Positions 1 to 22,479 of a stretch of 64,000 nucleotides of DNA are shown one piece after another. The notes beneath the pieces were generated by a model. That model saw only the letters and a program-made list of their open reading frames with translations. It searched no databases and was not told the DNA's origin. Each line of letters begins with the position of its first letter. Position 1 is the stretch's first letter. A program made the position numbers and the translations under genes. The DNA is from Pseudomonadales bacterium (GTDB lineage Bacteria; Pseudomonadota; Gammaproteobacteria; Pseudomonadales; Azotimanducaceae). Location of the stretch: assembly GCA_965208745.1 (NCBI GenBank), contig CBDBPN010000004.1:2815937-2879936 (forward strand), written 5' to 3'.

Positions 1-148
1 CGAAACGGCCGTCCATGATGGTCAGCGTGACGCCGAGGACGGTCGCCCCGACCATGAGCAGGGTGGTAATCGTGGTGATGAACTGGTGCTTCATCCTACG
101 TGCCGAGCTGCGTGCCGAGCTGCGTGCCGAGTCGGGTTGGAGGGCCAT
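1..148 (-). CDS. Partial gene (first 49 codons, open at window edge) for a paralogue of the 469..909 membrane-anchored coiled-coil protein
   Basis: Minus-strand ATG at 146-148 with GAGG about 7 nt upstream. Translation MALQPDSARSSARSSARRMKHQFITTITTLLMVGATVLGVTLTIMDGRF matches the start of 469..909, apart from an in-frame 24-nt (2 x 12 nt) tandem expansion. Absent from the ORF track because it runs off the window. Confidence 0.5.
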   Translation of the reverse strand, partial: MALQPDSARSSARSSARRMKHQFITTITTLLMVGATVLGVTLTIMDGRF

Positions 149-320
149 GCTCGCACCTCGTCGCAGGTTTGTATGCAGGAAGAAGACGCCTGCTTTCCGG
201 GCGGATTTCCCACATGGTGGATGGAGAGAGTCTGTGCCCGCGCGGAGGTTCGAGTCAACGACACCATCGTAAGCCGTTTTGCCCGCCATGGAACCCGCAA
301 CGCCCAGGCGCAGGATCGGC
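1..320. repeat. Direct repeat copy A (partner 785..1083): duplicated 5' coding part plus ~170-bp upstream region of the coiled-coil gene
   Basis: Positions 1-250 align base for base with 785-1010 at roughly 90% identity by eye. Copy A has an extra 24 nt at ~101-124. Similarity decays to ~75% towards 320/1083. Confidence 0.8.
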
Positions 321-468
321 AACGTCCAACCGTCAAGCGGCGACTCGTCCGGAGGCGAGCAGTTGACGGCTCGAACTTGCAGGCCGAAACGTCGAGCCAT
401 GGGCCGAAGCGGACCCGTCCCCTGGGTCTGGCTACGGGCGGGGCGAAGCCACGGCAGCGTCCGCCGCC

Positions 469-909
469 TTATGCCGGGGCGTGGCGCTCGCGCTGGTCGT
501 CCCTCTCGTCGGAGCGTTGCGCCTCGCTGCGCGGTGGTCCGTGGACGCCCTGGATCAGTCCCTCCAGCCGACCGATGGCGGTCGCCATCGCGCGGAACTG
601 GTCGCGCATGTCGCGGAACTGGTCGTTCATCTCCCGGAACTGATCGTCCATCCGCGCTTCCATCCGCTCCACGCGGTCCTCGAGCCGGTCGATGCGTCCT
701 TCGACCCGCTCGAAACGCGTGTCCACTTGCGTGGCCATCTGCTCGAAGCGCGCGTCGACCTGCTCGAGACGCGCGTCGACTTGCTCGAAACGGCCGTCCA
801 TGATGGTCAGCGTGACGCCGAGGACGGTCGCCCCGACCATGAGCAGGGTGGTGATCGTGGTGATGAACTGGTGCTTCATCCTGCGTGCCGAGTCAGGTTG
901 GAGGGCCAT
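469..909 (-). CDS. Small membrane-anchored coiled-coil protein (146 aa), function unknown
   Basis: ATG at 907-909 with GAGG 7 nt upstream. One TM helix (ITTITTLLMVGATVLGVTLTI) followed by ~90 aa of heptad-like repeats (EQVDARL, EQVDARF, ERVEGRI, DDQFREM, NDQFRDM, RDQFRAM). The ORF-track start at 1050 adds an unsupported N-terminus. Confidence 0.55.
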   Translation of the reverse strand: MALQPDSARRMKHQFITTITTLLMVGATVLGVTLTIMDGRFEQVDARLEQVDARFEQMATQVDTRFERVEGRIDRLEDRVERMEARMDDQFREMNDQFRDMRDQFRAMATAIGRLEGLIQGVHGPPRSEAQRSDERDDQRERHAPA

Positions 910-1083
910 GCTCGCACCTCTTCGCAGGTCTGTATGCAGGAAGAAGACGCCTGCTTTCCCGGCGGATTTCCCACATGTCGGATGGAGAGAGTCTGTGCCC
1001 GCGCGGAGGCTCGAGTCAACGAGACCCTTCGTGAACCGCTCTTCTGCCATGGAATCCGCAACGCCTTGAAGGGCAGGATCGGC
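785..1083. repeat. Direct repeat copy B (partner 1..320)
   Basis: See copy A. It covers the first ~40 codons of 469..909 plus its upstream region. Confidence 0.8.
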
Positions 1084-1232
1084 TGCGCTCTAACATCAAG
1101 GCCCCACTCGCTCGCAGGCGAGCGGTTGACAGCTCAGATTCACATGCCGAATCATCCAGCGGTGGGCTCAAGCTTGGCTACGGACGAACCGTCCTTCCGG
1201 CAACATGAGCCAGAGGAGCCCGAGCCTCACCC

Positions 1233-2512
1233 GTGACTTCCGTTCTCACGAAGGACATTGGCGACATCGGCATCGATGATGTCCAGGCGCTGATCGACTC
1301 CCAGGTTCGCGAAGGTCAGGAGATCGAGTTCAAGGAGGGATCTCTCGACGAAGAAGCGCTCGTCCGATGCTTGGGGGAAAATCGACTTGGGGATGCTGCG
1401 AAGCAGACCGTCCTCAAGCAGGTGACCGCGTTCGCGAACGCATACGGCGGTGCCCTCCTGCTGGGGATCGCGGAGTCGGAGACGAAACCGAGAGTCGCGG
1501 AGCGGGTGTCACCGATTCCACGTTGCGCGGACTTGGCCGAGCGGCTCAAGGTGGTGGTGCGTGACGGTGTGGAGCCGCAAATCCCGACGGTAGAGGTAGC
1601 CGCCGTTGCGCTGCGGGACGACGAAGGCGTGGTCGTCCTGCGCGTTGGTGCCTCGCGCTTGGCCCCGCACCGGGTGAAGAGTACTCGCGTCTGCGCCGTG
1701 CGTAGGGACGACCGGACCGAGGAATTGACAATGCGCGAGATTCAGGACATGACCCTGAACGTGGCGCGGGGAATGGACCGGCTCGAGCGGCGGTTCAGTG
1801 ATCGCGCTGACCGATTCAACCGGGAGTTCACCCGGCTCCGTGTTCCGAGTGAGGCGTGGGGAGTCCGCGTCACGGCGGTCCCAGTCGGTCACGGCTTCAA
1901 GATAGAACGCCTCCATGGGAGGGACGGAGTGGACACGCGGTTCGTAGCGCCATGGCGGGGAGTGTCGCGTGGCAATACTGGGACGCGAGTCCCGCCTTAC
2001 GCCGTCCGAGACCCCCAATCACTGGAGACCGGTTCTGCGCGGAGCCCGGGCGACGTACTACTCGGACTTCGAGCAAGACCCACACTATGACTACTACCGC
2101 GAGATTCGATGCGACGGATTGGTAGAAGCGGGATTGGTGCACTGCGGCCTGGCATCTGAAGACGGAAGGCTGGACCTGTCAGAAGGTCTCCTGCTCGTTT
2201 TCCTCGCCAACGCGTTGACACAGGCGCACCGCGTCAGGGCGGAAGCTGGGGCGCCGACGGCGGAGTACGGGATCGATGTGCATTGGCTCGACTCAGGTGA
2301 GAGTTGTCAGCGGCGAAGACCGGGTGTTTGGGAGGAGCAAGACTCTGGGCGTGGACCGCGAACACCTCCCCCGTTACTCCCTTGGATCGGCAGACGAGAT
2401 TCCGTTCCTCCTCGGCGCGTGCTACCAGGACCTCTGGGACAGCCTCGGCGTGGCCGTGGACGCGGAGCAGTTCTCGATTCCAGGCTGGTCTCCAGGTGAA
2501 AACCGCCCGTAA
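1233..2512 (+). pseudogene. AlbA_2/Schlafen-like (divergent AAA, putative DNA-binding) protein gene disrupted by two apparent frameshifts
   Basis: GTG start at 1233. The N-terminus (EIEFKEGS ... VTAFANAYGGALLLGIAE) carries the AlbA_2-domain signature. Protein-like sequence continues in the next frame (ORF 1969..2499, RPVLRGARATYYSDFEQDPHYDYYREIRCDGLVEAG...). It then continues in the third frame (ORF 2276..2512, VVSGEDRVFGRSKTLGVDREHLPRYSLGSADEIPFLLGACYQDLW). The switches lie near ~1950-2040 and ~2290-2305. Confidence 0.5.
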
Positions 2513-2553
2513 CCCGCCCGCACTACGTCAACAGTCTTCCGGGTCTTGCGTGC

Positions 2554-2580
2554 TTGGCATGCGCCACGGTCGGCTATGAT
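2554..2580 (+). promoter_or_regulatory. Candidate sigma70 promoter for the defence operon (TTGGCA - 15 nt - TATGAT)
   Basis: -35-like TTGGCA at 2554-2559 and -10-like TATGAT at 2575-2580, 24 nt upstream of the ATG at 2604. The 15-nt spacer is shorter than optimal. Confidence 0.25.
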
Positions 2581-2603
2581 CGCGTCTCGAACGAACGCTT
2601 CCC

Positions 2604-5600
2604 ATGACAGCACCACTCATCTACAGCGCCTGCCGCCCCCGCCCCGACGTCCTCGCCGGCGCCATCGCCGAGGCTGACTTCGCGGCGGATCTGGCCGACG
2701 TCATCCGGGGCCGCGCAAACCCGGAGTACTCCGACCCCGCCCGTTTCTTCGCCAACACGTACCCCACCGAGGGTCTGAAGAACCTCCTCGCCAACGTCGC
2801 GGCCCGGCTGAGTGGCTCCGGAGGCTCTGCGGCAGCGATCTTCCGGCTGGATACCTCGTACGGAGGCGGCAAGACTCATGGCCTGATCGCCCTGGCCCAT
2901 GCCGCGCGTGGCTTGTCCGAGGTTTCGAACGTGGCCGAGTTCATCGACCCGGACCTCCTTCCCGACGGCCCGGTACGCGTCGCGGCGTTCGACGGCGAGA
3001 ACGCCGATCCCGCGAACGGTCGTGCCATGGGCGAAGGGAGCGACTCCATCCTCGCCTTCACACCCTGGGGCGAGATCGCATTCGCCTTGGCGGGCCCGGA
3101 GGGCTATGAGCGGGTCCGCAACAGCGACGAGAACCGTGTCTCTCCCGGTGCGGACACCTTGCGCGAACTCTTCGGCGGCGAGCCCACGCTGATCCTGCTC
3201 GACGAGTTGTCGGTGTACCTCCGCAAGGTCCGCCACCTCCAGGATGCGGGAAGCCAGTTGACGGCCTTCCTCACGAGCCTCTTCAAGGCCGTCGAGGGCA
3301 CACCCAACGCGGCCCTGGTCTACACGCTGGCGATCGGGCGCGACGGACTCGCGACGGACGCGTACTCGGAGGAGAACCAGTTCATCGCCGAGCGCATGGC
3401 GGAGGCGGAGAGCGTCTCGGCGCGCAAGGCCACCCTGCTGAATCCGACCGACGAAGACGAGTATCCACAGGTACTCCTCAGGCGCCTTTTCGAGCACGTC
3501 GACGAGGCGGGAGCCAACGCAGCCATAGAGACTTACCGCGGCCTTTGGCAGGCGAGCGGCCAGGCCATTGACGCGGACGCCCAACGCTCAGACACGGTGA
3601 CGAGATTTCGGTCGACGTACCCGTTCCACCCGGAAGTGCTCGATACGCTCACAGAAAAGGCGTTCACGCTCAGCGGGTTCCAGCGCATCCGCGGCATGCT
3701 CCGCCTGCTCGGCCGCACGGTCGCGCACCTCTGGTCGGAACGCCCGGGTGATGCCGCTGCCATCCACTTGCACCATGTCGACCTGGGGCAGGAGTCCATC
3801 CGCCAGGAAATCGTGACGCGCCTGGGGCAGTCCGCCTACGTCCCCGCCATCTCGAACGACATCGCGGGCGCTGCCGGCAACCCCGCCCTGGCCGAACGAC
3901 TGGACGGTGAACTGCACAAGGGCTTGCCTCCGTACGTGGGATACGTGGCCCGCACGGTGTTCATGCACACCCTGGCGTTCAACGAGCCCCTCAAGGGTGT
4001 GGTCCCTGAACGGCTACGTTACTCGCTGGTCGGGCCGGCGATGGACCTGTCCTTCATCGAAGAAGCGCGAAAGACGTTCGTCACAGAGTCTGCGTTCCTC
4101 GACGACCGGCCGGGTTCCCCGATGCGCTTCCTCGCGGAACCGAACCTCACCAAGCTCATCCAGACCGAAGAACAGAACGTCGACGTAGCGGATGCCCGCG
4201 CGTACCTCGACGACCGTATCCGCGAGATCTTCGTCGGGCCGACCTTCGACGCGGTTCGGTTTCCGGGCGGTCCGTTCGACGTGCCCGACGAGGTGGCGGA
4301 CGGCAAGCCAAAGCTCGTCGTGCTCGCGTACGACGGTGTCGCGATCGGTGGACTCGTGGACTCCGTTCCCGAACTCGTCGAGCGCATCTACGAGCGTAAG
4401 GGTTCCGAGGGCTCGGCGCTAAGGACGTTGCGGAACAACCTCGCGTTCGTGGCGGCGGACGAGACCCGCAAGGAAGACATGCGGCGAGCCACGCGACGTC
4501 GTCTTGCGCTACGCGAACTGAGGAAGCCGGAGCGTCTCGGCGAGTTGGCGGAGCACCAACAGGACAAGGTCCGCGAGCTTGAGCAGGGTTCCGAACACGC
4601 CCTCGCGGTAACCATCCAGCAGTGCTACCGCCACGTGTTCTACCCCTCGCGCAACCGCCTGCCGGAGAGTCGGGTCGATCTCGCCCACACGGTCATCGAC
4701 ATCCCTTCATCGTCGGACAAGCCGGGCGCGGGGCAGCAACAGGTCGTGCGCGTCCTGCAGGAACTCAGCAAGCTACGCCTGCCGGAAGACGAGCCGGATT
4801 CGCCGACCTACGTGCGCGACCGCACCCCGCTGCGCAAGGGCCAAATGACGACCCTCGAGTTGCGCGCCGAGTTCCGCCGCGATCCGGCGCTGCCCATGCT
4901 GGTCGGCGACGATGTCTTTATCCGCGGGATCCGAAACGGCGTCGAGGCCGGCGAGTACGTGTATCAGCGCGACACACTCCTCTATGGCCCTGGCGATCCG
5001 GGTGTCTCCATAGTCATTGACGCCCAGGCCCTCGTCCTGACCATGGCGTTCGCCCGCAACAACCGCGTCTGGCCACGTACGCCGGAGGTGCGGGAAGGGG
5101 GCGTGCCCCCCGAGACAAAGCCGACAGGGCCGACTCGCCCGTCCGGTCCGGATACGGGACGACCGACCGCGACGTCTGACGGTGCGTTTTCGGCGGAGGG
5201 AGTGCTCAAAGAAGCGTTGACCAAACTGTGGGAGGAGGCCCAGGGCCGCGGCGTCGAGGCGATCGGTCGCCTGCACATCCGCCTCTTCGAACCACGGGAC
5301 GCATTCCGGTTGCTCGGGGCGGTTGGCTCGGTGGCAGGAGCGACCAAGGCAGTCGCGTTCACCGGCGGTTACGAGACTCCCGACGGCGGATCGTTCGAGT
5401 TGGAGTTCCGGGGACCGGTCCCTGATGCCCAGCCCGTCAGGGAGTTCCTCGAGCCGCAGTTCCTGGCGGCGAGCGAGCGGAACCTCGATGCGGAGTTGGA
5501 GCTGACCTTCGCGAACGGGCTTCCCTTGGCTGGGGACGAGCCGCGAAAGCTCGCGGAGCGTCTGTCGCGCTTCGCCAGCGAGGCGGTGCACGTGACGGCT

Positions 5601-5615
5601 GAGGCGCTCGAGTGA
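2604..5615 (+). CDS. DUF499/COG1483-type P-loop ATPase (1003 aa), first gene of the RM-like defence operon
   Basis: The N-terminal motif FRLDTSYGGGKTHGLIALAH (P-loop GGGKTH) and the ~1000-aa size are typical of DUF499 proteins. It is followed in the operon by DUF1156 methylase and PLD-helicase genes. Confidence 0.75.
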   Translation: MTAPLIYSACRPRPDVLAGAIAEADFAADLADVIRGRANPEYSDPARFFANTYPTEGLKNLLANVAARLSGSGGSAAAIFRLDTSYGGGKTHGLIALAHAARGLSEVSNVAEFIDPDLLPDGPVRVAAFDGENADPANGRAMGEGSDSILAFTPWGEIAFALAGPEGYERVRNSDENRVSPGADTLRELFGGEPTLILLDELSVYLRKVRHLQDAGSQLTAFLTSLFKAVEGTPNAALVYTLAIGRDGLATDAYSEENQFIAERMAEAESVSARKATLLNPTDEDEYPQVLLRRLFEHVDEAGANAAIETYRGLWQASGQAIDADAQRSDTVTRFRSTYPFHPEVLDTLTEKAFTLSGFQRIRGMLRLLGRTVAHLWSERPGDAAAIHLHHVDLGQESIRQEIVTRLGQSAYVPAISNDIAGAAGNPALAERLDGELHKGLPPYVGYVARTVFMHTLAFNEPLKGVVPERLRYSLVGPAMDLSFIEEARKTFVTESAFLDDRPGSPMRFLAEPNLTKLIQTEEQNVDVADARAYLDDRIREIFVGPTFDAVRFPGGPFDVPDEVADGKPKLVVLAYDGVAIGGLVDSVPELVERIYERKGSEGSALRTLRNNLAFVAADETRKEDMRRATRRRLALRELRKPERLGELAEHQQDKVRELEQGSEHALAVTIQQCYRHVFYPSRNRLPESRVDLAHTVIDIPSSSDKPGAGQQQVVRVLQELSKLRLPEDEPDSPTYVRDRTPLRKGQMTTLELRAEFRRDPALPMLVGDDVFIRGIRNGVEAGEYVYQRDTLLYGPGDPGVSIVIDAQALVLTMAFARNNRVWPRTPEVREGGVPPETKPTGPTRPSGPDTGRPTATSDGAFSAEGVLKEALTKLWEEAQGRGVEAIGRLHIRLFEPRDAFRLLGAVGSVAGATKAVAFTGGYETPDGGSFELEFRGPVPDAQPVREFLEPQFLAASERNLDAELELTFANGLPLAGDEPRKLAERLSRFASEAVHVTAEALE

Positions 5616-6103
5616 TGGCGAGTTCGGAGCGGGTGGTGGACATCGAGGCCCCACAGTCCGCCCCGGAGTTCGAGTTGCGCGTGCGCGCCCATGGATTGGC
5701 GGGGCTGGAGTTCGAGGTCTGGCAGTTGCCGAGCAGAGCGACCCCGCATGTCATGCAGCCGGCGCGTGTCGCAGGGCTCAAGGGCCGCAACCTGCAACTC
5801 GTGGAGCATCGCGTCCTCAAACGCCTCGCCGCCGCGGGCATCGTGCCGAGCGCACGCGCCGACGGCGGCAAGCAAGGCTACAGATTGTCTGAAGACTTGG
5901 CGCTCAGCCTCGGGCTCCTGTTCCGGGTGCTAGCTCCCATGCGCAGCCGCGAGAACATGCGTGCCGTCGCCGAAGGCGTGGAAGCCATGGGGCGGGAAGA
6001 GGCGGCCTATTGGCTGGGGATGGCTATGCATCGGAAGAACCCGCGGCGTGTGTTGACGGCCCTGCGGGTGTTGTTGACGATGCCGAAACGGAAGCCGGCA
6101 TGA
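5615..6103 (+). CDS. Small protein (162 aa) in the position occupied by DUF3780 in DUF499/DUF1156 operons; function unknown
   Basis: The ATG at 5615 overlaps the upstream TGA (TGATG); a GTG at 5612 is an alternative start. Protein-like composition. The family assignment rests on operon position only, not on a recognised motif. Confidence 0.45.
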   Translation: MASSERVVDIEAPQSAPEFELRVRAHGLAGLEFEVWQLPSRATPHVMQPARVAGLKGRNLQLVEHRVLKRLAAAGIVPSARADGGKQGYRLSEDLALSLGLLFRVLAPMRSRENMRAVAEGVEAMGREEAAYWLGMAMHRKNPRRVLTALRVLLTMPKRKPA

Positions 6104-7320
6104 AGCTCGAGTCAGTCGAGATTCGGAGCTATAGGGGCATCGAGCACCTCACCCTCCCTCTGGATCCTCGGTTGACGGTGTTGCACGGGGCCAACGGGTG
6201 CGGCAAAACGAGCGTGCTGACCGCCACTGCCATGGCGCTGGGCGCCGCCCCAGACACCGATTACCGGCGGCTGGAGCTGGATCGTCGGGTCGGCAGCGCG
6301 GACCGGCCCGCGATTGCGGTGAAGGAAGCCTCTGAGAATGGGAAGCCGACAGGGACGCTATCCCTGTACATTCCCGAGTTCCGGATGCCGGCGGACATCG
6401 ACGGGCCCGTGAGGGTGCCCAAACCAAACCTGGGTCCGTGGGAGCGGGAGCTGTCGGACATGGCGTTGCCGCGCTGCCGGTTCTACGACATCGACAGGGC
6501 CGCGGCTTCCAGCTTGATCGGTCGGTCGGTAGGTTCCATCCCGGATTACGAGCAGTTGTTCGAGTGGTTCCACGCAAAGGAGTACGAGGAGCTCCGCCTG
6601 CAGCGGGAACAGGGGGCGGACGCGAGGCTTGGCTCGCTCGCCGCGGTCCGCGCCGCGATCTGCGGGATGCTTCACGATGTGTCGGACCCGCGCGTCGGCA
6701 TGTCCGACCCGCCACGGCTGGTCGTGTCCCGGCCAGACGAGCCGGTTATCGCCTTCGAGCAACTCAGCGACGGCTATCGCGGGGTACTCGCCCTCGCGGC
6801 CGACATCGGCCGGTACTTGGTGGAGGCGGACCTGGCTGGCGATTCCCCGAAGCCCCTTGAACGGGAGATCGTGGTTCTCATCGACGAGATCGAGCTGCAC
6901 CTCCACCCCGCGTGGCAGCAGCGCATTCTTGCGGACCTGATACGCACCTTCCCGAACGCGCAGTTCGTGCTGTCGACCCACAGTCCGCAAGTCCTGACCA
7001 CGGTGCATCCGAAACACATAGTCGAGCTTGCGGTGGAGGAAGGCCGCGTCGTTGCAGGCCCGCCGTCGGCACCGACATACGGTGCCGAGGCGGGGGCGGT
7101 CCTCGCAGGAGTGATGGGAGTAGAAAAACGGCCCCCCAACGAGTTTAGCGAGGGGTTGCGGCGTTACATGCGCCTCGTCAGCGATGACCAAGGGGAGACG
7201 CAGGAGGCGCGGAAGCTCCGAGACAGGCTGGACGAACTGTCGTATCACGACCCGGCCCTGCAGCGGGCCGATATGGAGATCAGGCGACGCAAGATGCTGC
7301 GAGACATGGACGAGTCGTGA
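6100..7320 (+). CDS. ABC/AAA_21-type ATPase, Septu PtuA-like (406 aa)
   Basis: The ATG at 6100 overlaps the upstream stop (ATGA). N-terminus MKLESVEIRSYRGIEHLTL. Walker A LHGANGCGKTSVLTA, Walker B and HLHP in VVLIDEIELHLHPAWQ, H-loop LSTHSPQVL. The ORF-track start at 6010 is rejected because it would overlap the previous gene by 94 nt. Confidence 0.75.
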   Translation: MKLESVEIRSYRGIEHLTLPLDPRLTVLHGANGCGKTSVLTATAMALGAAPDTDYRRLELDRRVGSADRPAIAVKEASENGKPTGTLSLYIPEFRMPADIDGPVRVPKPNLGPWERELSDMALPRCRFYDIDRAAASSLIGRSVGSIPDYEQLFEWFHAKEYEELRLQREQGADARLGSLAAVRAAICGMLHDVSDPRVGMSDPPRLVVSRPDEPVIAFEQLSDGYRGVLALAADIGRYLVEADLAGDSPKPLEREIVVLIDEIELHLHPAWQQRILADLIRTFPNAQFVLSTHSPQVLTTVHPKHIVELAVEEGRVVAGPPSAPTYGAEAGAVLAGVMGVEKRPPNEFSEGLRRYMRLVSDDQGETQEARKLRDRLDELSYHDPALQRADMEIRRRKMLRDMDES

Positions 7321-8090
7321 AGCGGATCCGAGCGTTGGAGGAGCCGACGCCGGGTCTTTCCGAGTACAGAGAGCTGGAGCAGGACTCTGCGACGTGGGAG
7401 GGATTCGGTTCGCACCGTGGGTCGTCGGATGCCAAACGGGAGTTGACCGACGCCCTTGCCGACATCCAGCACGGGCTGTGCGGCTACTGCGAGATCACTC
7501 TGCACCCGAGGGACCGCGAGATCGAACACGTCATTCCGCGGTCCGACACGGCGCGAAGCGGAGCCCGGAAAGCGCTCGACTACACAAACATGATCGCTAG
7601 CTGCAGGGGGAACGCGGGGATGCTGCGTCATCCAGACGTTAGTGGGGACACCTCCCGCTTTCGGTTCCCTATCAGAGCGCACCGGAGTTGCGGTCATGCG
7701 AAGGGCGACACGTCCGACGCGGTCTTTCTGGACCCGAGGGAGGTGCCGGACTCGCCGTCGCTGTTTCGAGTGGCGATTGACGGGGAGATCACAGCAGACG
7801 TCGATGCGTGCCGGTTGCAGCGCGTAGAGCCCGCCCGCGTCGAGCGCACCATCGAGATCCTAGGCCTTAATGTTCTGCGGCTCCGCGAAGCTCGAGCGGC
7901 ACGCTGGCAAGACCTGCAGGCGGAATGGGACCTGTACGAGGACGACTGGCGCAAGATTCGGGCTGCCGCCATTCGCGAGTTGCTGCCCGACGGAACTGAC
8001 AAGTTGCCACGGTTCTTCACCACGACGCGCAGCTTCTTCGGTGCGTTGGCCGAGGCCGTCCTCGACAAGGCGCATAGGTCATGGGTCTGA
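7317..8090 (+). CDS. HNH endonuclease of the TIGR02646 type, Septu PtuB-like (257 aa)
   Basis: The GTG at 7317 overlaps the upstream stop (GTGA). Motifs LCGYCE ... EIEHVIPRS ... YTNMIASC ... SCGHAKGD match the Cys-pair/HNH pattern of ATPase-associated HNH nucleases. Confidence 0.7.
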   Translation: MKRIRALEEPTPGLSEYRELEQDSATWEGFGSHRGSSDAKRELTDALADIQHGLCGYCEITLHPRDREIEHVIPRSDTARSGARKALDYTNMIASCRGNAGMLRHPDVSGDTSRFRFPIRAHRSCGHAKGDTSDAVFLDPREVPDSPSLFRVAIDGEITADVDACRLQRVEPARVERTIEILGLNVLRLREARAARWQDLQAEWDLYEDDWRKIRAAAIRELLPDGTDKLPRFFTTTRSFFGALAEAVLDKAHRSWV

Positions 8091-8108
8091 AGGACGGGGC
8101 GACGTAGC

Positions 8109-11029
8109 GTGAGCGATACCCGCCTGATCGAACGCTGGATGCCGATTTCGGCACTCGGTGAGGAGAGCGTCCGAGAACGCCGTTCCATGACGGCGTTGCC
8201 TCCGATCTACTACCTGCACGTCTGGTGGGCGAGGCGACCGCTGGTCGCGTCGCGTGCGGCGGTACTGGCTTCGATCCTTCCGGCGGATGCAGATCGCGAT
8301 CGATTTCTCCACGCTATCGGGATTCATGGTGATCCTGTGGCGACACGTCGGAAAATTGACGAGGCACGGTTGAAGGGCGAACGGTTCGAAGGGCAGGCGT
8401 ATTCGTACCCTCGGGCGTTCACTTACTGCCCCGACATGGATGAGAAGGCATGGGCAGTCTCCGGACCCCTTCGCATCCTTGATCCGACAGCGGGCGGCGG
8501 GAGCATTCCCTTCGAGGCTTCTCGTTTGGGGTTGGCCAGCTTTGCCAACGACCTGAATCCCGTGGCGGCATTCATTCTCGCCGCCACGGTCGAATGGCCT
8601 GCCCGGTTCGGCATGGCTCTCGGGACGAGCTACGCGGCTCTCGCGGAACGATACCTCGCAGAGCGTGAGCGCAAGCTGTCGCCTTACTACCCGAAGGAGC
8701 CGTCTGACACGGCGGTCGCCACCAACTGGGTGTGGGCGCGAACTATCCGTTGCCCGTACTGCGATGGACTGGTGCCACTCTCGCCGAACTGGCGGCTTGC
8801 CGGCGACGGCACCGGCGTCCGCCTTGTGCCGCACCTTGGCGATGGTCCTGGTTCGCCGAATCGGCGTTGCTCCTTCGAGATCGTCCGTTCGCAGGCCCGG
8901 CAGTCCGGCGGTACGGTTTCGCGTGGCTCCGGTACGTGCCCCTACAGCGACTGCGGTCGCGTGATCGACGGGGACGAAATCAAGGCACAAGCACAGATTG
9001 GTGGGATGGGTGACCAACTCTACGCTATCGTGTTCAAGGAGCGTGTCGAGTACGAGACTAAGACGGGCAAGAAGCGCACGAAGTGGGTACGCGGGTACAG
9101 GGCGCCGACGAACGCCGACGACAACGCTGCGGAAATTGCCGCGCGACTCCACGAGAAGCTGCAGGAGTGGGAAGCGTTCGACTACGTGCCAAGCGAGCGA
9201 TTTCCGGAAATCAGCAACGACGATCGCCCCATCCAGTACGGCATGCCGCGATGGCGAGACCTGTTCTCGCCCCGCCAGTTGCTGTCCCACGGCACCAGCG
9301 TCGAAGTGTTTCGGGAGATGCTGGATGCCGACCGGGAAGCGGGACGCCTTGACGACTTGAGGAAGGCTGCTTACGGCTACCTGGCGCTGACGCTGGACAA
9401 GTTGCTGAACTACAACTCCCGCATGTCCGTCTGGATGCCCACTCGGCAGGTTGTCGCCAATACCTTCAACCGGCACGACTTCGCCATGTGTTGGTCACAT
9501 GCGGAGATGTCGCCGCTGGTTACTGGTGTCGGCTACGACTGGGCGATCAAGCAGACTGCCAAGTGCATCGACGAACTCGTCGCGCTTGTTCGTCCGGGAG
9601 CGGCAGAGGGCGACTTGGTCTCCCAGCCTGACGCGCCTCCTTCCGTAACGATTACCTGCAAGCCAGGCGACAGCCTCGATCACGTGGAGGACGATTCCAT
9701 CGACGTCGTCGTAATGGACCCACCGTACTACGACAACGTCATGTACGCGGAACTCTCGGACTTCTTCTACGTTTGGCTGAAGCGCACAGCCGGACAGGTT
9801 TTCCCGGAACTCTTCCGCCGACAACTCACGGACAAAGAGAACGAGGCCGTCGCGAATCCCGCGAAGTTCCAGGGCGAGAAGAGCGCCAGGGCGCTCGCGG
9901 GCAGGGACTACCAGGAGCGGATGGCCTCGATCTTCGCCGAGTGCCGGCGCGTGCTGAAGCCGAACGGCGTGATGACCTTGATGTTCACGCACAAGGCGAC
10001 GGGTGCGTGGGATGCGCTGACGACTGGGCTCATCGAAGCAGGCTTCTCGATCACCGCGTCTTGGCCGGTGAACACGGAGGCCGAAGGTAGCCTTCACATC
10101 AAGGACAAGGCAGCGGCGAACAGCACGATCTTCTTGGTCTGTCGTCCGCGAGAAACGCCGGATGCCCTTGAGCTTCGCGACGCTGCGCCGGTCTACTGGG
10201 AGGATGTCGAGCCCCGTGTCACGCAGGCCGTACGGGCGCGGATGCGCGAGTTCGAGGAGGCGGGGATCTCGGGTGTCGACCTGTTTCTCGCGGCCTTCGG
10301 TCCCGCGTTGGGCGAGTTCTCGCGGCACTGGCCCTGCAGCGCGGAACGCCTCGGGAGAAGCCGCTGGAGCGGCGAAGACGGCGGCAATCGGAGTTGTTCG
10401 AGGACGAGTGGGATCCCTACGCGGCGACGCCGGAGGACGCGTTGCACGCTGCCCGCCGTGAGGTGCAGCGCTACCGACTGGAGCGCATCGCGCATCCGAG
10501 CGCTAACGCGGACCTGGATCCTCCGACAGCCTTCGTGGTCTTCGCTTGGGACGCTTTCAAGGCGCCCGTGTTCGCCTACGACGAAGCGTTGCACTTGGCG
10601 CGTAGCGTGGGCATCGATCTGGATGGTGTGGTTGTCGGGCGTTTGGCGGAGAAGAAGGGCAGCAACCTTCGGCTGTGGGACAGCGCGTACCGGGCGGCGA
10701 AAGGCGCTCTTGGTGCGACCGATGGATCGGGTGGGATGATCGACGCCATCCACCACGCGGCGAACATGGCCCGTCGGCGATCGTTGGCTACTGCTCGCGA
10801 CTTCCTGCGCGACTCCGGAATAGACCGTGAACCCGGTTTTTTCGTGGCGCTCGAGGCGCTCCTTGAGGTGCTGCCGCCGTCTTCCAAGTTCACCGGCACG
10901 GAACGCCAAGGAGATGTCGCGGGCGCCGCCAGCGATTTCGAGGCGCTCTACGACCTGTATCGGCTGGCGTACACGGAGCAGATCGACGAGCCTGAGCAAC
11001 TCGCCTTCTGGCGCGAAGAGGCGGACTAG
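8109..11029 (+). pseudogene. DUF1156/COG1743 Zn-ribbon amino-DNA methyltransferase (N6-A or N4-C class) interrupted by one frameshift near 10331-10336
   Basis: DUF1156 N-terminus (RWMPISALGEESVRERRSMTALPPIYYLHVWWARRPL). SAM motif I ILDPTAGGGSIPFEA. Zn ribbons CPYCDG ... CPYSDCG. Motif IV VVMDPPYYDNV. After EFSRHWP the 8109 frame becomes R/S/C-rich junk. Protein-like sequence resumes in the frame of ORF 10394..11029 (ALQRGTPREKPLERRRRQSELFEDEWDPYAATPEDAL...). One extra nt after TGG CCC would restore a single ~973-aa ORF. Confidence 0.8.
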
Positions 11030-11061
11030 GCGCGGCGGCCGTCGAGTCGTTTCCCATCATC

Positions 11062-14000
11062 ATGCTCCGCGACCACCACTGGAAGCTGAAGTACACGCCG
11101 GATGACGGGGACCTCGTGTCGGAGTTCTACATCCCCGCACTTGAGGACGCCGAGCGCTACGACCGGCTGACGGGTTACTTCAACGCCGGCGCGCTCGCCC
11201 TCGCCGCGCGCGGCATTGAAGGGCTGGTACGCAACGGCGGCACGATGCGTCTCGTAGTCGGTTGCACTCTCGCCCCCCCGGAAGTCGATGCGATAGAGCG
11301 TGGCGAAGAGCTTCGCGCGCACGTCGAGCGTCACCTCACGGAGCTTCCCCTGGTGGCTTCGGACTCCGATGTGAGCGAGGCTCTGGAGCTCCTTGCCTGG
11401 ATGGTGACGCACGGTCACCTTGAGGTGAAGGTTGCGGTGCCCTGCGATGCGCAAGGCGTTCCCGTTCCGGACGGCGGGCTGTTCCATGAGAAGTCGGGGA
11501 TCATCGAGGATCGCACGGGACAGAAGCTTGCTTGGACGGGCAGCCTCAACGAGACCGCCGCCGGCTGGCGCACGAACTGGGAGACCATCAACGTCTCGAC
11601 GGGTTGGGAGCACCCCGAGCGCGTCCGCCTCGAGGAGGGCAATTTCGAGCGCATGTGGTCTGGGCCCCGTGGTCGCTGGATCGTTCTGGACGTGCCCCAG
11701 GCGGTGCGGCGTGACCTGCTGCGTTTTCTGCCCAAGGACGATAAGAAGCCGGCTCGCCTACTCGATGGCGAGCAGGCAGGCGATGACACCGAGGAAGGGC
11801 AGGTACCGGTACCGGTGCCGGCCGAGGAGGAGTCGGAAGAGGACGCCAGACGACGGGCCGAGGTCTGGGAGTTCATCCGCAAGGCGCCGACACTGCCAGA
11901 CGGGGGCTCGCGCGTTGGCGAAGCGACCTCCGCGGTCACGCCGTGGCCGCACCAGGTGCGTGCCTTCGAACGGATGTACGAGAACTGGCCGCCACGCCTC
12001 CTGATCGCCGACGAGGTGGGGCTCGGCAAGACGATCCAGGCGGGGATGCTAATCCGGCAAGCCTGGATCGCCGAGCGCGCGAAGCGCGTGCTGATCCTCG
12101 CGCCGAAGGCTGTCCTGCGGCAATGGCAGATTGAACTGCGGGAGAAGTTCAACCTCAACTGGCCCATCTACGACCAAGGCAAGCTCACCTGGTATCCCTC
12201 GCCGGCGATGGTGGGACGCGATGTGCGAGAGGTTGCACCGAATGCCTGGCATCACGAAGATGCGGTGATCGTCTCCAGCCAACTCATGCGCAGGCACGAG
12301 AGGGCTGCGGAACTGCTTTCCGCAGAACGTTGGGACCTAGTGGTGCTCGACGAAGCGCACCATGCACGTCGGCGCGGTGCGGGCTCGGCGCGTGAGGAAG
12401 ATCGCCCCAACGCGCTGCTTAGCCTGATGCGCGAGTTGCGCGATCGGACGGAGGGGTTGCTTCTTCTCACGGCGACGCCGATGCAGGTGCATCAGATCGA
12501 GGTCTGGGACCTTTTGGACCTTCTGGCGATGCCCTCGGAGTGGACCGGTCAGGCGTTCGTCGACTTCTTCGAGAACGTCGTGAGGCCAGATCCTTCGACT
12601 GCCGCGATGGAGCGCATGGCGATGCTCTTCCGGGCGGCGGAAGATGCGTACGGGCCGGTGGATGAGGCCCGGGCGCAACGCGTCACCGATCTATCGGCGC
12701 TGAGAGCGCGGAAGGTAATGCGCGCGTTGCGCGACAGCGCAAGCATCCCGAGACGACGACTGGCGTCGCAGGAGAGGTCGGCCGCTCTCGCGATCATGCG
12801 TTCCCACACGCCGATCAGGCACTTGGTCTCTCGCCACACGCGGGATCTGCTTCGGCGGTACTTTGAGGCCGGGTTGCTGAAGACGCCGATTGCGGGAAGG
12901 GATGTCGAGGACCGCTTCATCGAGATGTCAGCGCCCGAGAGGGCTGTCTACGACGCTCTTGAGGACTACATCCGGACCACCTACAACCAGGCCGACGAAA
13001 GCGTTCGTAACGCGGTCGGTTTCATCATGACGGTCTATCGACGACGCCTCGCAAGCAGCTTCGCCGCGCTTGGGGCGACCCTTCGTAAGCGGTTTGATGC
13101 CGTCGGGAGCGGTGCGGACCTGTTGGCCAACGCCGAAGAAGATATCCCAGACGATGAAGCTGCGGAGGAAGCGCTCGATGTCGACGAGGTTGGCGACCTC
13201 TCTCGACAGGCGCTCTTGGCGGAGGAGCACTCGGACATTGGCGAGCTGCTGGCGAGCGTGGAGGCGTTGGCGCCCGACACCAAGCTCAGTGCGCTTATCC
13301 GGACGCTCGATCGCCTCCGTGACGACGGCTATCGCCAGGTGATGGTGTTTACGCAGTACACCGACACGATGGACTTCCTCCGGGAACGCTTGTCCGCCCA
13401 CGATGGGACGCGGCTGATGTGCTACTCGGGCCGTGGCGGCGAAACTCCCGTAGGCGGGGCGCCGAACCTCTGGCGGTCAATTTCGCGCGACGACGCTAAG
13501 CGCCGCTTCCGGGAAGGAGAAGCGGACGTGCTCCTGTGCACGGACGCTGCTGCCGAAGGTCTCAACTTCCAGTTCTGCGGCGCTTTGGTGAACTACGACA
13601 TGCCTTGGAACCCGATGCGGGTCGAGCAGCGAATCGGAAGGATCGACCGGCTTGGGCAAACGCACGAGCGCATACGGATCATCAATCTACACTACGACGA
13701 CACGGTTGAGACGGATGTCTATCGGGCGTTACGTGGGCGAATTCTCTTGTTTGAGTCTGTCGTAGGGAGACTACAGCCGATACTGGCGCGCTTGTCTGGA
13801 GCGATTGGGCAGGCTGTGCTGCATGGAGGCAAGCAGGGGCTTCCAGATGCTGTTGTAAGTGAAGTCAATGAAGCCGATGCGGGAGGCTTCGACATAGACG
13901 TGGCGTTAGACGACGAGGAGTCGATGCCGGACCGACCGGAGCCGCCTCTGACGATGCAATGGCTGGATGAGGTCATCTCATCTTTCCCGCTGATGCCTCC

Positions 14001-14193
14001 GCAGATCCAAGTGCGTCTGCTACAGGGTCGAGAGTATGCACTAAGGTGGGCAAATGTTCCCGAGGAGCTTAGGGTGACTACAGACAGCGAATACTACGAG
14101 GCCCATGCGGACAGCGTAGAACTTTGGTCACCAGCGGGAGTGGCTTTTGTCGGCCCGCAAGACGAAGGCCAGGACACAGCGTGCGAGGATTGA
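11062..14193 (+). CDS. PLD-family nuclease domain fused to SNF2/DEAD-like helicase (1043 aa)
   Basis: N-terminal single HKD-type motif (GLFHEKSGIIEDRTG ... GSLNET). SNF2 motifs I LLIADEVGLGKTIQAG, II VVLDEAHHARR and III LLLTATPMQ. C-terminal helicase motifs LLCTDAAAEGLNFQ and NYDMPWNPMRVEQRIGRIDRLGQ. Confidence 0.85.
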   Translation: MLRDHHWKLKYTPDDGDLVSEFYIPALEDAERYDRLTGYFNAGALALAARGIEGLVRNGGTMRLVVGCTLAPPEVDAIERGEELRAHVERHLTELPLVASDSDVSEALELLAWMVTHGHLEVKVAVPCDAQGVPVPDGGLFHEKSGIIEDRTGQKLAWTGSLNETAAGWRTNWETINVSTGWEHPERVRLEEGNFERMWSGPRGRWIVLDVPQAVRRDLLRFLPKDDKKPARLLDGEQAGDDTEEGQVPVPVPAEEESEEDARRRAEVWEFIRKAPTLPDGGSRVGEATSAVTPWPHQVRAFERMYENWPPRLLIADEVGLGKTIQAGMLIRQAWIAERAKRVLILAPKAVLRQWQIELREKFNLNWPIYDQGKLTWYPSPAMVGRDVREVAPNAWHHEDAVIVSSQLMRRHERAAELLSAERWDLVVLDEAHHARRRGAGSAREEDRPNALLSLMRELRDRTEGLLLLTATPMQVHQIEVWDLLDLLAMPSEWTGQAFVDFFENVVRPDPSTAAMERMAMLFRAAEDAYGPVDEARAQRVTDLSALRARKVMRALRDSASIPRRRLASQERSAALAIMRSHTPIRHLVSRHTRDLLRRYFEAGLLKTPIAGRDVEDRFIEMSAPERAVYDALEDYIRTTYNQADESVRNAVGFIMTVYRRRLASSFAALGATLRKRFDAVGSGADLLANAEEDIPDDEAAEEALDVDEVGDLSRQALLAEEHSDIGELLASVEALAPDTKLSALIRTLDRLRDDGYRQVMVFTQYTDTMDFLRERLSAHDGTRLMCYSGRGGETPVGGAPNLWRSISRDDAKRRFREGEADVLLCTDAAAEGLNFQFCGALVNYDMPWNPMRVEQRIGRIDRLGQTHERIRIINLHYDDTVETDVYRALRGRILLFESVVGRLQPILARLSGAIGQAVLHGGKQGLPDAVVSEVNEADAGGFDIDVALDDEESMPDRPEPPLTMQWLDEVISSFPLMPPQIQVRLLQGREYALRWANVPEELRVTTDSEYYEAHADSVELWSPAGVAFVGPQDEGQDTACED

Positions 14194-14196
14194 GGC

Positions 14197-14718
14197 ATGG
14201 GAATCTACCAAGGCAACCTGGACGGTCTGTGCGGCCAGTATGCCATCGCAAACGCGTTCGGATTGTGCGGCTTCGATGAAGAGGACTGTTTCCAGAGTGC
14301 CTGCCGTGGCCTGGCGCATCGCCGATGGCCGATGGCGTTGTGGGAAGGGACGACGCTAGGCGACATGAAACGAATGATTGCCCGTTGTCGGCGGGAGCTT
14401 GATGTCTTAGGCGAGGTCACTGTTCACTATCCCCTCCTTCTAGATGAACCAAAAGCGGACAAGTCGTACTGGAGACGATTCGATGCGATCTTCGAGAACA
14501 TGGAGGTTCGTTGTGGCATCATGGGACTGACACGACCAACGGCACATTGGATCGTCGTACAACGCTCGGGCAGGTCCTTGGAGTTCGTGGATTCGAATCC
14601 CGAGAGCCTGCAAGTCAGGAAGTATCGAAAGTCCATACATGCCGGTAAGCGGCCTCGATCCAAGAACCAATGGCTAGTTGACCGCAAGGAGCTAATCACA
14701 TTTACCGTGGTGACTTAG
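14197..14718 (+). CDS. Stand-alone papain-fold / peptidase C39-like cysteine peptidase domain protein (173 aa)
   Basis: Starts 3 nt after the helicase stop. YQGNLDGLCGQYAIANAF has Gln 7 residues before the candidate nucleophile Cys, followed by CG, as in C39 domains. TAHWIVVQRSGRSLEFVDSNP resembles the C39 His ... Asp-Pro block. No signal peptide or ABC-transporter fusion. Confidence 0.5.
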   Translation: MGIYQGNLDGLCGQYAIANAFGLCGFDEEDCFQSACRGLAHRRWPMALWEGTTLGDMKRMIARCRRELDVLGEVTVHYPLLLDEPKADKSYWRRFDAIFENMEVRCGIMGLTRPTAHWIVVQRSGRSLEFVDSNPESLQVRKYRKSIHAGKRPRSKNQWLVDRKELITFTVVT

Positions 14719-14945
14719 CAGCAGACTATGGGTTTCCGAGGTCTAACGCCCCCATGTACCTTGGAGCAGTGGTCGACGGGATTTGAAGGCATTGCGCAAG
14801 GATCAGATCTGGTCGCTGGCCCGCTCCGTTTCTGTGCCTGAACGAAGGCTCAACAAATCTAGGGTGGGCGGCTGTCCGGTCGACCACGGCGAAGCACCGT
14901 GTTATCGATCACGCGTGAAGTGCAAAAAGAATGGAGGAGTTGATC

Positions 14946-16106
14946 ATGGCTAACTCGATTGCTGGCGCGTCTCCAGTGGAGGTCGACGAGAATTGGGGAG
15001 TACGTTTCGGTATCGGCTGTTGGGACATCGGCCTGAGAAGGTCGGGCTCCTTCAACATCAGCGGTCGAGAGTACGTGGCAGCACTCACGGACGCCCTTGA
15101 AGCCATCGAGTCGTTGGACCATCTCAGAATCGTACTGGACCCGGTGGTAGACCTTGTCGAGCCAATTGACGAAGGCGCACTCACGGAGGTAGATGGCGGC
15201 CGCGCGATTATGGGCTTCGGCCTGCTGTCCGAGGTCAGTTTTGACTTGAACATCCCGTTTCGGCGACAGAACGAGTTAGGTGCACCGTGGTCGAGCGAGC
15301 AAACGAAAACCCGTACGTTCAGGGTACATATGCGCTACCCGTTTTACAGCCCAGTGGCCTTTGTCGAACTCGTGGGCGACAGGCCTGGCGGAATGGGCGC
15401 GAGCGGCGTAAAAGTTGTGCGGGAGTATTTGGAGGTCCAGTTGGCCGAGACGGGAGATGCTCTCGCATATGAGTCTGTCGGACCGTCGCCTTTCCATGCT
15501 GATCTAGAGATCAGGATTGGCAAGGACGCGGGGGCTGATGGTCCGCGCTTCAAATGGGAAAGGTTGGAGGCGTACGGATACGATTCGATAGTGTTCTGGT
15601 GGGGAGATACGTCGATACCGACGTCGGAGATTAGCGGACGGCTCTTCAAGGAACTGGAAGAAGAGCTTGATGTATTCTACTTGATTGCGTCGAACAATCT
15701 GAAAAAGCACTCGAGTTGGGCTCGGCTGGAGGAACTGGCCGGAGACGTCGTTGCACGTCTAAAGGAATCAGGCGTGTGGAAGAGAACGATTGGGATGCGA
15801 AAGCAGAGCCGGGATCTCGCTGCCCTATATTGCGATCTCGTCGAGTTTAGATCGCGGGAGATCGCCTTCGATCAGGAGGAGCGGTCAGCGGTGAGAACAC
15901 TATACGATAGATCATCGGAGGTTGTGTTTCGGAACGCGATTGACGCGGCAATGAAGGGGCGCAGGGTTTACTCTTGGGAACAGCTAAGAGACCTGTCAGT
16001 GTTCATGGAGGGACGAAGGTCGAAGTCGGTCGAGATGACATTGATCTTCATGTCGGCATTGGCAGGGGCGGTCGTTGGGTCGTCGATTACGTTGCTGTCG
16101 ACGTGA
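14946..16106 (+). CDS. Hypothetical protein (386 aa) with a single C-terminal TM helix; no recognisable domain
   Basis: GGAGG at 14933-14937 lies 8 nt before the ATG at 14946, which is preferred over the ATG at 14931. Protein-like composition in a lower-GC block. C-terminal hydrophobic segment MTLIFMSALAGAVVGSSITLL. Confidence 0.6.
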   Translation: MANSIAGASPVEVDENWGVRFGIGCWDIGLRRSGSFNISGREYVAALTDALEAIESLDHLRIVLDPVVDLVEPIDEGALTEVDGGRAIMGFGLLSEVSFDLNIPFRRQNELGAPWSSEQTKTRTFRVHMRYPFYSPVAFVELVGDRPGGMGASGVKVVREYLEVQLAETGDALAYESVGPSPFHADLEIRIGKDAGADGPRFKWERLEAYGYDSIVFWWGDTSIPTSEISGRLFKELEEELDVFYLIASNNLKKHSSWARLEELAGDVVARLKESGVWKRTIGMRKQSRDLAALYCDLVEFRSREIAFDQEERSAVRTLYDRSSEVVFRNAIDAAMKGRRVYSWEQLRDLSVFMEGRRSKSVEMTLIFMSALAGAVVGSSITLLST

Positions 16107-16492: not shown

Positions 16493-16522
16493 TTGCTGCC
16501 GAGGGCCCGCATCTCGTAGAAT
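16493..16522 (+). promoter_or_regulatory. Candidate sigma70 promoter of carAB (TTGCTG - 18 nt - TAGAAT)
   Basis: -35-like element at 16493-16498 and -10-like element at 16517-16522. The predicted start would fall just 5' of the hairpin at 16531. Confidence 0.3.
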
Positions 16523-16530
16523 CCCCCGTC

Positions 16531-16560
16531 AGCCGTCGAGTCGTGGCCGACGGCTTTTTT
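16531..16560 (+). terminator. Intrinsic-terminator-like hairpin plus T6 in the carA leader (possible attenuator)
   Basis: 8-bp stem AGCCGTCG (16531-16538) / CGACGGCT (16548-16555), 9-nt loop, and a T run at 16555-16560. It ends 15 nt before the carA TTG start. Confidence 0.55.
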
Positions 16561-16575
16561 GTACAGGAACGCTGA

Positions 16576-17710: not shown

Positions 17711-17724
<14 letters not shown>
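16576..17724 (+). CDS. carA: Carbamoyl-phosphate synthase small (glutaminase) subunit
   Basis: TTG start with AGGAA 7 nt upstream. N-terminus [18 protein letters not shown] resembles E. coli CarA. Contains GICLGHQLL (catalytic Cys). Confidence 0.95.
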
Positions 17725-20946
<3,222 letters not shown>

Positions 20947-20950
<4 letters not shown>

Positions 20951-21420
20951 CGACGCCGATGACCCTGGAGGGCGAGCGCCAGTTGCGCGAGGAACTGGCG
21001 GAACTCAAGAACGTGGCGCGGCCGAACATCGTGCGCGAAATCGCCGCGGCCCGCGGCCACGGGGACCTGCGGGAGAACGCGGAGTACCACGCGGCGAAAG
21101 AACTGCAGGGCTTCATCGAGGGACGCATCGGCGAGATCGAGGGCAAGCTCGCCGACGCGCAGGTCATCGACGTCACGCGCATCGGCCGCACGGGCCGCGT
21201 GGTGTTCGGCACGACGGTGACGCTCGAGGACTGCGACAGCGGCGAGACCGTGCGCTACCGGATCGTCGGCGAGGACGAGGCCGACCTCGGGGTCGGCAAG
21301 ATCTCCTTCCTGTCGCCCATCGGCCGGGCCATGATCGGCAAGTCGGAAGAGGACGCGGTGGTGGTGACGACGCCCAACGGAGAGCGGGAGTACGTCATCG
21401 ACCGGGTCGAGCACCTGTAG
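20947..21420 (+). CDS. greA: Transcription elongation factor GreA
   Basis: The ATG at 20947 overlaps the carB stop (ATGA). [48 protein letters not shown]. Confidence 0.95.
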
Positions 21421-21436
21421 CGCCCGGCCCGGGACG

Positions 21437-22434: not shown

Positions 22435-22479
22435 GCGATTCCTGCTGACCCGCACCTAGAGGGTAAGCGATTGAACGAT

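Follow-up and report, generated by a model that had tools for sequence, protein, structure and literature searches.

A type I Septu pair in the variable slot of an Hma operon: probably an autonomous and exchangeable second layer of phage defence

The methylation-based defence system Hma came to light because it associates with Septu (Payne et al. 2021, PMC8565338), a pair formed by the ABC ATPase PtuA and the HNH nuclease PtuB. The idea of ‘guilt-by-embedding’ (Payne et al. 2021, 2024) has Septu in Hma as its founding example; the ‘embedded’ architecture was named by Payne et al. 2024 (bioRxiv 10.1101/2024.01.29.577857), and embedded genes are present in 62.7% of the 1,485 Hma systems considered in the same work. 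Here we analyze a 64,000-nucleotide stretch of DNA from a Pseudomonadales bacterium (assembly GCA_965208745.1, contig CBDBPN010000004.1, positions 2,815,937 to 2,879,936 of the forward strand), hereafter called the window, in which a ptuA-ptuB pair lies at 6100-8090 inside an hma operon. Because nesting of Septu in Hma is already published, the locus is an ordinary example that fits the known scheme, and its discovery value is limited. What its analysis adds is threefold: sequence-level proof that a whole PtuAB allele has been replaced between Hma scaffolds that are 98-99% identical, the breakpoints lying on the borders of the cassette or just within them; the persistence of a PtuAB lineage under purifying selection after loss of the Hma core at the same chromosomal site; and a map of the other occupants of the slot in an Hma subtype marked by a DUF7680 gene. 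These comparative data favor autonomy and layered defence over obligate coupling. Hence, the pair is very probably a type I Septu housed in a variable cargo slot of the Hma operon, where it would be a co-expressed, autonomous and exchangeable second defence layer and not an obligate effector of Hma.

Several described systems resemble the locus under study. In Halomonas meridiana the gene order is hmaA-ptuA-ptuB-hmaB, and hmaA alone equals hmaA-ptuA-ptuB in defence against T4 (PMC11232893). As in Halomonas and in the Hma systems with embedded Septu of Payne et al., the window encodes HmaA, HmaB and HmaC on a single strand and has PtuAB lying between hma genes and co-oriented with them. However, Septu lies between hmaA and hmaB in Halomonas, where the helicase has a C-terminal nuclease, whereas in the window it is flanked by the DUF7680 gene and hmaB, and the PLD domain of the helicase is N-terminal. 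A further difference from the published cases is that hmaB of the window is frameshifted. A survey from 2026 renamed such loci DUF499-centred BREX-related, distinguished a Type-2 that combines an HKD-helicase with a small DUF3780 gene, and counted OLD-ABC plus HNH dyads among the ‘backup effectors’ embedded in core BREX-related loci (PMC12839542). A second-layer role of embedded systems has been proposed in both embedding papers (bioRxiv 10.1101/2024.01.29.577857, PMC12839542). The window shares with Type-2 loci the DUF499 ATPase, the DUF1156 methylase, the HKD (PLD) helicase, a small alpha+beta protein and an embedded ABC-ATPase/HNH dyad, but its small gene is DUF7680 and not DUF3780. The 4 strands and 5 helices predicted for the DUF7680 protein fit the account of DUF3780 given in the survey, a comparison made by description only.

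Characterised Septu systems nick DNA in vitro, and some of them cleave tRNA-Tyr within its variable loop and cause abortive infection; Septu works alone in E. coli, and mutations in the Walker A/B or H-N-H motifs abolish defence (PMC12819146, PMC13096335). Like the Septu of E. coli ATCC 25922 (8EE4/8EE7/8EEA) and Septu Ec-B88, the window pair has overlapping ptuA and ptuB genes, ABC ATPase motifs and an HNH partner of the TIGR02646 family. Unlike E. coli Septu, it is nested in another operon and has no intergenic promoter region of its own, and its PtuA is only ~24-25% identical in the fold alignment, measures 406 instead of 465 aa, and differs in the hypervariable insert that it carries at aa 41-145. 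Retrons of type I-A (Ec78/Eco7, Ec83; Septu type II) also have homologues of the ATPase and the HNH protein. The original prediction, made by a model from the sequence of the window, held that Septu normally occurs either stand-alone or with retrons, a view that omits Hma.

The window pair is a canonical type I Septu module. The first gene, ptuA (6100-7320, + strand), encodes a 406-aa Septu-type ABC ATPase whose top PADLOC model is Septu PtuA (PDLC00311, E=3.4e-87). The second, ptuB (7317-8090, + strand), encodes a 257-aa HNH nuclease of the TIGR02646 family that matches the PADLOC PtuB model over its full length (PDLC00349, E=3.8e-55), NCBIfam TIGR02646 with 67.1 bits (cut-off, 52.15) and Pfam HNH with E=6.6e-5. 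As in type I Septu, the genes are adjacent, on the same strand and in the canonical order. When sequences in the PDB were searched, the closest solved relative of PtuA was E. coli Septu PtuA (8ee4_A, E=2.8e-34), and PtuB matched PtuB chain 8ee7_C (E=3e-9). A Foldseek search with an AlphaFold2 (AF2) model of PtuA (predicted local distance difference test score, pLDDT, 85.2) returned PtuA chains only among its top 50 PDB matches, the best one being 8eea_C of the E. coli Septu PtuAB complex (E=2e-26). Domains of the reverse transcriptase type were absent from all open reading frames (ORFs) of the operon and its neighbours in profile scans, and no retron noncoding RNA was found in the 64-kb window, for which Rfam reports two tRNAs only. 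Since Septu models come first in profile, structure and fold searches, and neither a reverse transcriptase nor a retron RNA accompanies the pair, we classify it as type I Septu and not as a retron effector or as a member of another ABC/HNH family. The two-gene Septu signature recognized by the original prediction (a 406-aa ATPase, a 257-aa TIGR02646 HNH protein and three sequence motifs) is thus confirmed, and the assignment of the pair to the family lies well above what chance would give.

The three motifs, GANGCGKTS (aa 30-38), DEIELHLHP (aa 262-270) and LSTHSP (aa 291-296), are conserved in an alignment of 34 homologues. In functional terms, the conserved elements of PtuA are the Walker A motif (G30-S38, including K36), a signature-like LSDG (222-225), the Walker B pair D262-E263 and the H-loop H294; conservation is also found in the C-terminal region that aligns to 8ee4 (aa 261-400). 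In PtuB, the same alignment reveals conservation of C55, C58, E69-H71, N91, C96 and C125-G126-H127, among them the catalytic His and Asn and the Zn-binding cysteines. The conserved residues belong to the classes that Septu defence requires according to published mutants (PMC13096335, PMC12819146). Residues 41-120 of PtuA are, in turn, hypervariable, with 9-33% identity to the window sequence, and one may speculate that this insert is a candidate surface for recognition of the trigger.

Septu is embedded in the operon in the sense of Payne et al. 2024, as the DUF7680 gene and hmaB enclose the complete system, which is on the + strand in the same orientation as they are. The left border of the slot is the DUF7680 gene (5612-6103, + strand; 163 aa; Pfam DUF7680, E=5.5e-45), whose TGA shares the tetranucleotide ATGA (6100-6103) with the ATG of ptuA at 6100. 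A second 4-nt overlap, GTGA, joins the TGA of ptuA to the GTG of ptuB at 7317, and 18 nt separate the end of ptuB from the start of hmaB at 8109. Homologues and profiles whose alignments begin at residue 1 back both start codons. With overlaps of this kind, a separate promoter between the genes would have no space. A crude scan with a generic consensus, which is weak evidence in a high-GC organism, detected neither a sigma-70-like promoter nor an intrinsic-terminator-like site inside the operon, and we regard the scan as uninformative and not as proof of co-transcription. The original prediction had noticed that both starts overlap the preceding stops, and its suggestion of a nested hybrid of two defence systems proved right: the pair sits inside a DUF499-DUF1156 (Hma) operon without intergenic space of its own. 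Its placement of the pair between a gene in the DUF3780 position and the methylase holds for the location, while the small gene turned out to be Pfam DUF7680. Insertion of ptuAB by a transposon or an integrase was considered and rejected, as direct and inverted repeats around 6100-8090 amount to short matches at chance level and no GC step is found at the borders of the pair; homologous exchange is preferred.

To place the junction in a comparative context, DUF7680 homologues were aligned and one genome per species was scanned. At least 517 loci with a relative were obtained, and the best 80 (L001-L080), which are those most similar to the query and derive nearly all from metagenome-assembled genomes (MAGs), were taken with 10-kb flanks and searched by tblastn with the window proteins. 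Cargo was counted as co-oriented ORF clusters confirmed by profile matches; raw greedy ORF lists gave spurious antisense or extended ORFs at high GC. The Hma operons nearest to that of the window belong to MAGs labelled Pseudomonadales or Gammaproteobacteria. HmaC has DUF7680 as its neighbour in each of the 80 loci, including the cargo-free loci L018, L027 and L069, which indicates that DUF7680 is a core gene of this Hma subtype and does not belong to the Septu cassette. In 63 of the 80 loci, hmaB follows downstream on the same strand. The gap between DUF7680 and hmaB ranges from -8 nt to ~9.85 kb (median, 2.8 kb); it is 100 nt or less, without cargo, in 5 loci, and just 4-8 nt in the three cargo-free loci named above.

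The DUF7680-hmaB junction is a general cargo slot, and Septu is among its most frequent occupants. The original prediction had raised the question of how often DUF499/DUF1156 loci carry the pair at the same position, and the answer is that PtuA and PtuB are found together within the slot in 24/80 loci, as the sole cargo in 8 of them. The start of PtuA overlaps the DUF7680 stop by 4 nt, as in the window, in 17 loci, and in 11 the end of PtuB falls in the range from 1 nt inside to 11 nt ahead of the hmaB start. Other cargoes are Menshen NsnABC (9 loci), a STAND NTPase of the AAA_16/TPR kind with ~1000-1240 aa (11 loci), ImmA/IrrE plus DUF4411 (5 loci) and, besides these, TIR plus SLOG, type II methylases and a GHKL ATPase. 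A three-gene cassette encoding proteins of ~230, 200 and 370 aa is also detected (L005, L006, L014, L019, L022, L024, L029, L030, L034, L045, L047, L052, L068, L071, L073 and L074), with each protein family present in 13 loci. Its third protein has a weak metallo-beta-lactamase/LmuA-like match, and the first two had no family match in profile scans. This cassette is a candidate for an uncharacterised embedded defence system.

Exchange of the cargo can be read directly in two Hma loci, L084 and L085, whose scaffolds are nearly identical. At the amino acid level, identity is 98% for HmaC, 99% for HmaA, 94% for HmaB and 91% for DUF7680, and falls to 58% for PtuA and 54% for PtuB. Along the DNA (L084, 8001-10143; L085, 8001-~10150), nucleotide identity drops from ~97% to 33-79% at the start of PtuA and returns to 96-97% about 150 nt past PtuB, so that the left breakpoint lies at the PtuA start and the right one ~150 nt beyond the PtuB stop, near the start of hmaB. 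Synonymous divergence (dS) is 0.13 for HmaC and 0.08 for HmaA, compared with 1.44 for PtuA and 2.47 for PtuB. Values of this magnitude in PtuAB, flanked by values of 0.08-0.13, cannot be produced by faster protein evolution in place and indicate that the cassette was replaced. The same pattern is seen between L002 and L004, where HmaC is 95% and PtuA 59% identical, and the PtuA of the window is 58-59% identical to the PtuA of its closest scaffolds, whose core proteins are 78-86% identical. Whole PtuAB alleles have therefore been replaced between near-identical Hma scaffolds. L084 and L085 constitute a natural allele-swap pair that could be used to ask whether cargo and scaffold interact.

When we examined the relatives of the window PtuA, the three nearest (67%, 66% and 63% identity) were found to have no intact hma gene alongside. 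Two of them, L081 (67%) and L082 (66%), are plain PtuAB pairs located directly upstream of carA in metagenome-assembled chromosomes. Their flank (L081, 12126-21236) is 80-86% identical at the nucleotide level to the window flank at 16506-25918, which contains carA, carB, greA, ftsJ, ftsH and onward. Because the carA flanks match, a single chromosomal site is occupied by Hma together with Septu in one lineage and by Septu without Hma in another. Between L081 and L082, the ratio of nonsynonymous to synonymous divergence (dN/dS) is 0.20 for PtuA and 0.28 for PtuB, with dS values of 0.33 and 0.29 that resemble those of CarB and DnaK (0.23). Low dN/dS together with housekeeping-like dS indicates that PtuAB has been vertically inherited and kept by selection without Hma. 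Remnants of hma genes at E<1e-3 were not detected beside the pairs of L081 or L082; they are found in L083 only. In the latter (9828-12201), PtuAB lies between a 58-codon ORF that matches the N-terminus of HmaC over its first 48 residues (60% identity) and a stub of HmaB residues 6-55. L083 is hence a decayed Hma locus that has retained its Septu cargo. In the PtuA tree, the stand-alone pairs nest within the embedded clade.

The surroundings of these pairs deserve a separate comment. In L084 and L085, the full operon is located downstream of dapB-tauD (1-4300 in both), and dapB-tauD is also found upstream of stand-alone PtuAB in L081 and L082. The interval from dapB-tauD to carA contains Hma plus Septu in L084/L085, and PIN-FitA, a Pyr_excise gene and Septu alone in L081/L082; it looks like a defence-island hotspot in related genomes. 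The island of the window ends at carA, and its upstream end was not matched to dapB.

The host operon is tightly packed and spans 2604-14193 on the + strand. Its first gene, hmaC (2604-5615, + strand), encodes a 1003-aa DUF499 AAA+ ATPase (PADLOC HmaC, E=3.7e-95; Pfam DUF499, E=3.8e-38). The right border of the slot, hmaB (8109-11029, + strand), encodes a DUF1156 N6-adenine methyltransferase (PADLOC HmaB, E=7.4e-77; Pfam DUF1156, E=3.6e-14). The last gene, hmaA (11062-14193, + strand), encodes a PLD(HKD)-SNF2 helicase-nuclease with Pfam domains PLDc_2, SNF2-rel_dom and Helicase_C (PADLOC PLD_Helicase, E=1.3e-73; HmaA, E=3.5e-62); the PLDc_2 match at the helicase N-terminus has E=2.4e-5, weaker than the Pfam cut-off. 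This PLD-helicase is the predicted primary effector of the host Hma system. With co-oriented genes for a DUF499 ATPase, a DUF1156 N6-methyltransferase and an SF2 helicase, the HmaC, HmaB and HmaA set is complete. Not all of its members are, however, intact. Comparison with L085, using tblastn with its HmaB and aligned DNA, revealed a 1-nt deletion in hmaB near 10333-10340, where the window reads TGGCCCTGCAG and L085 reads TGGCCGCTGCAA. As a consequence, the frame of 8109 covers residues 1-750, and the last 231 aa fall in that of the ORF at 10394-11029. The displaced 231 C-terminal residues are 92% identical to those of L085 and free of stops; hence, the frameshift is either a very recent pseudogenisation or an assembly error.

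A tentative scenario for the function of the pair can be drawn from these observations and from the analogy with characterised Septu. PtuAB would be read from the hma promoter, with its translation coupled to that of the DUF7680 gene, and would thereby be co-regulated with Hma. Once made, it would act independently, in the manner of stand-alone Septu. In analogy to E. coli Septu, oligomers of PtuA might hold or sequester PtuB until infection releases the HNH activity, either through a phage protein acting as trigger, through a drop in ATP, or both. The freed activity would then nick DNA and/or cleave tRNA-Tyr, leading to abortive infection. PtuAB may thus provide a second, mechanistically different layer against phages that escape or inhibit the methylation-based Hma. 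Exchange of cassettes among Hma loci could proceed by homologous recombination, in which the DUF7680 gene would supply one arm with its conserved 3' end and hmaB the other with its 5' end.

Other explanations were weighed against this one, beginning with the assignment to Septu itself. That the pair might belong to a different ABC-ATPase/HNH family, be it a retron type I-A effector pair, an RloA/PrrC-like anticodon-nuclease partner or an OLD/PARIS/Gabija-like module, is highly improbable. The retron version draws on the NCBIfam scan, where the best match of PtuA is the retron Ec78 PtuA equivalog (E=8.3e-68), on the PADLOC retron models ATPase_I-A (E=1.6e-70) and HNH_I-A (E=8.7e-30), and on retron PtuA chains in the PDB that score nearly as high as E. 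coli Septu PtuA. However, the equivalog match reaches 229.6 bits, far under its 500-bit cut-off, both PADLOC retron models are weaker than their Septu counterparts, and the 406-aa PtuA lacks the N- and C-terminal extensions of retron PtuA (542-551 aa); the missing reverse transcriptase and noncoding RNA point in the same direction. Unrelated families score worse: AriA, OLD and GajA match PtuA in the PDB sequence search at E=1e-5 to 1e-3 only, across the Walker and signature segments. The condition of hmaB suggests another explanation, namely that Hma is being lost in this genome and PtuAB is its sole functional defence module, in which case the locus would capture a stage in the transition to the stand-alone state of L081-L083. 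Besides the 1-nt deletion that splits hmaB, the related genome with PtuAB only at the same carA-proximal site and the HmaC and HmaB stubs around the pair of L083 speak for such a course. We nevertheless consider it unlikely, as the displaced codons of hmaB show how recent the frameshift must be, if it is not an assembly error, and all the remaining hma genes are intact. Decay of the host system would, in any event, be compatible with an autonomous second layer and does not exclude it.

A more direct challenge is the possibility that PtuAB has been recruited as the dedicated ATPase-nuclease of Hma, with one system depending on the other. An integrated component functionally coupled to the modification system was also what the original prediction proposed. 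The architecture lends itself to this interpretation: the upstream start/stop overlaps and the short downstream spacer, the recurrence of the same ATGA junction in 17 loci and of tight PtuB-hmaB spacers (-1 to 11 nt) in 11, the correlation between PtuA and HmaC distances, and the very discovery of Hma through its co-occurrence with Septu (PMC8565338). Yet the core Hma operon also exists without the pair or with unrelated cargo in the slot, and it already contains a primary nuclease, the PLD-helicase. Moreover, PtuAB alleles are swapped between 98-99% identical scaffolds, stand-alone descendants evolve under purifying selection, Halomonas hmaA alone does as well as hmaA-ptuAB against T4 (PMC11232893), and Septu functions alone in E. 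coli. Obligate coupling is therefore not supported by the comparative data, and we deem it quite improbable. Another view shifts the emphasis from the cargo to the slot, which might be a dedicated site of recombination-driven exchange where whole modules such as Septu alleles, Menshen and STAND NTPases are swapped in frame with ATGA coupling, so that the Hma operon serves as an expression platform and HmaC/DUF7680 might also license or sense for the embedded effector. A licensing or sensing role is compatible with the data because the co-phylogeny of PtuA and HmaC is broad and translational coupling is recurrent, but we find this elaborate version rather doubtful.

Several observations weigh against an autonomous and exchangeable second layer. 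Pairwise distances of PtuA and HmaC are correlated (Spearman 0.75, 26 loci), the trees are broadly congruent, and the window PtuA clade matches the HmaC clade of L001-L004, L038, L084 and L085. The association of Septu with this Hma lineage is old and the junction is conserved, so some functional dependence could exist. The insert of PtuA at aa 41-145 is unlike that of E. coli PtuA, the PADLOC and PDB matches are split in two, and residues 99-107 and 133-148 of the AF2 model have a pLDDT under 50. The trigger and the architecture of the oligomer may therefore differ from those of E. coli Septu. As hmaB is frameshifted, the Hma part may be non-functional in this genome. An internal promoter may lie within the DUF7680 gene, given the crude sigma-70 consensus used in the scan. 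Finally, the breadth of the survey is limited to the best 80 of at least 517 loci, nearly all from MAGs. Taking both sides together, the pair is exchangeable and yet a long-term resident of this Hma lineage. The sporadic independent insertion that the original prediction named as the opposite outcome is thus borne out as far as exchangeability goes, and contradicted by the congruence of the trees.

Identity of the DUF7680 protein stays at ~65-83% in the loci L001-L080, which come from Acidobacteriota, Binatia, Alpha- and Gammaproteobacteria and Latescibacterota. In most loci its conservation equals or slightly exceeds that of HmaC and HmaB, and it is far above that of PtuA. A fold search with its AF2 model (pLDDT 84), which contains the 4 strands and 5 helices mentioned above, gave no PDB match (best E=0.73). 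Several genomes harbor 2-4 HmaC-DUF7680 loci; an example is CAXXVU020000002.1, with L044, L059, L063 and L079.

Other features of the window lie on both sides of the operon. Between hmaA and carA, two ORFs at 14197-14718 (173 aa) and 14931-16106 (391 aa) have a GC content of 0.56-0.58, compared with 0.65-0.70 around them, and gave no Pfam, PADLOC or NCBIfam match; judging from their composition, they may be further island cargo of different origin. Schlafen/AlbA_2 domains are frequent in defence islands, and one of them (Pfam E=1e-11) is encoded by a 285-aa ORF at 1233-2090, just upstream of the Hma operon. At the beginning of the window (1-1173) there is a direct duplication of ~770 nt, in which segments 1-107, 120-265 and 310-410 recur at 786-892, 881-1026 and 1073-1173 with 98%, 95% and 71% identity, respectively. 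The duplication overlaps a coiled-coil-like ORF on the - strand (469-1050).

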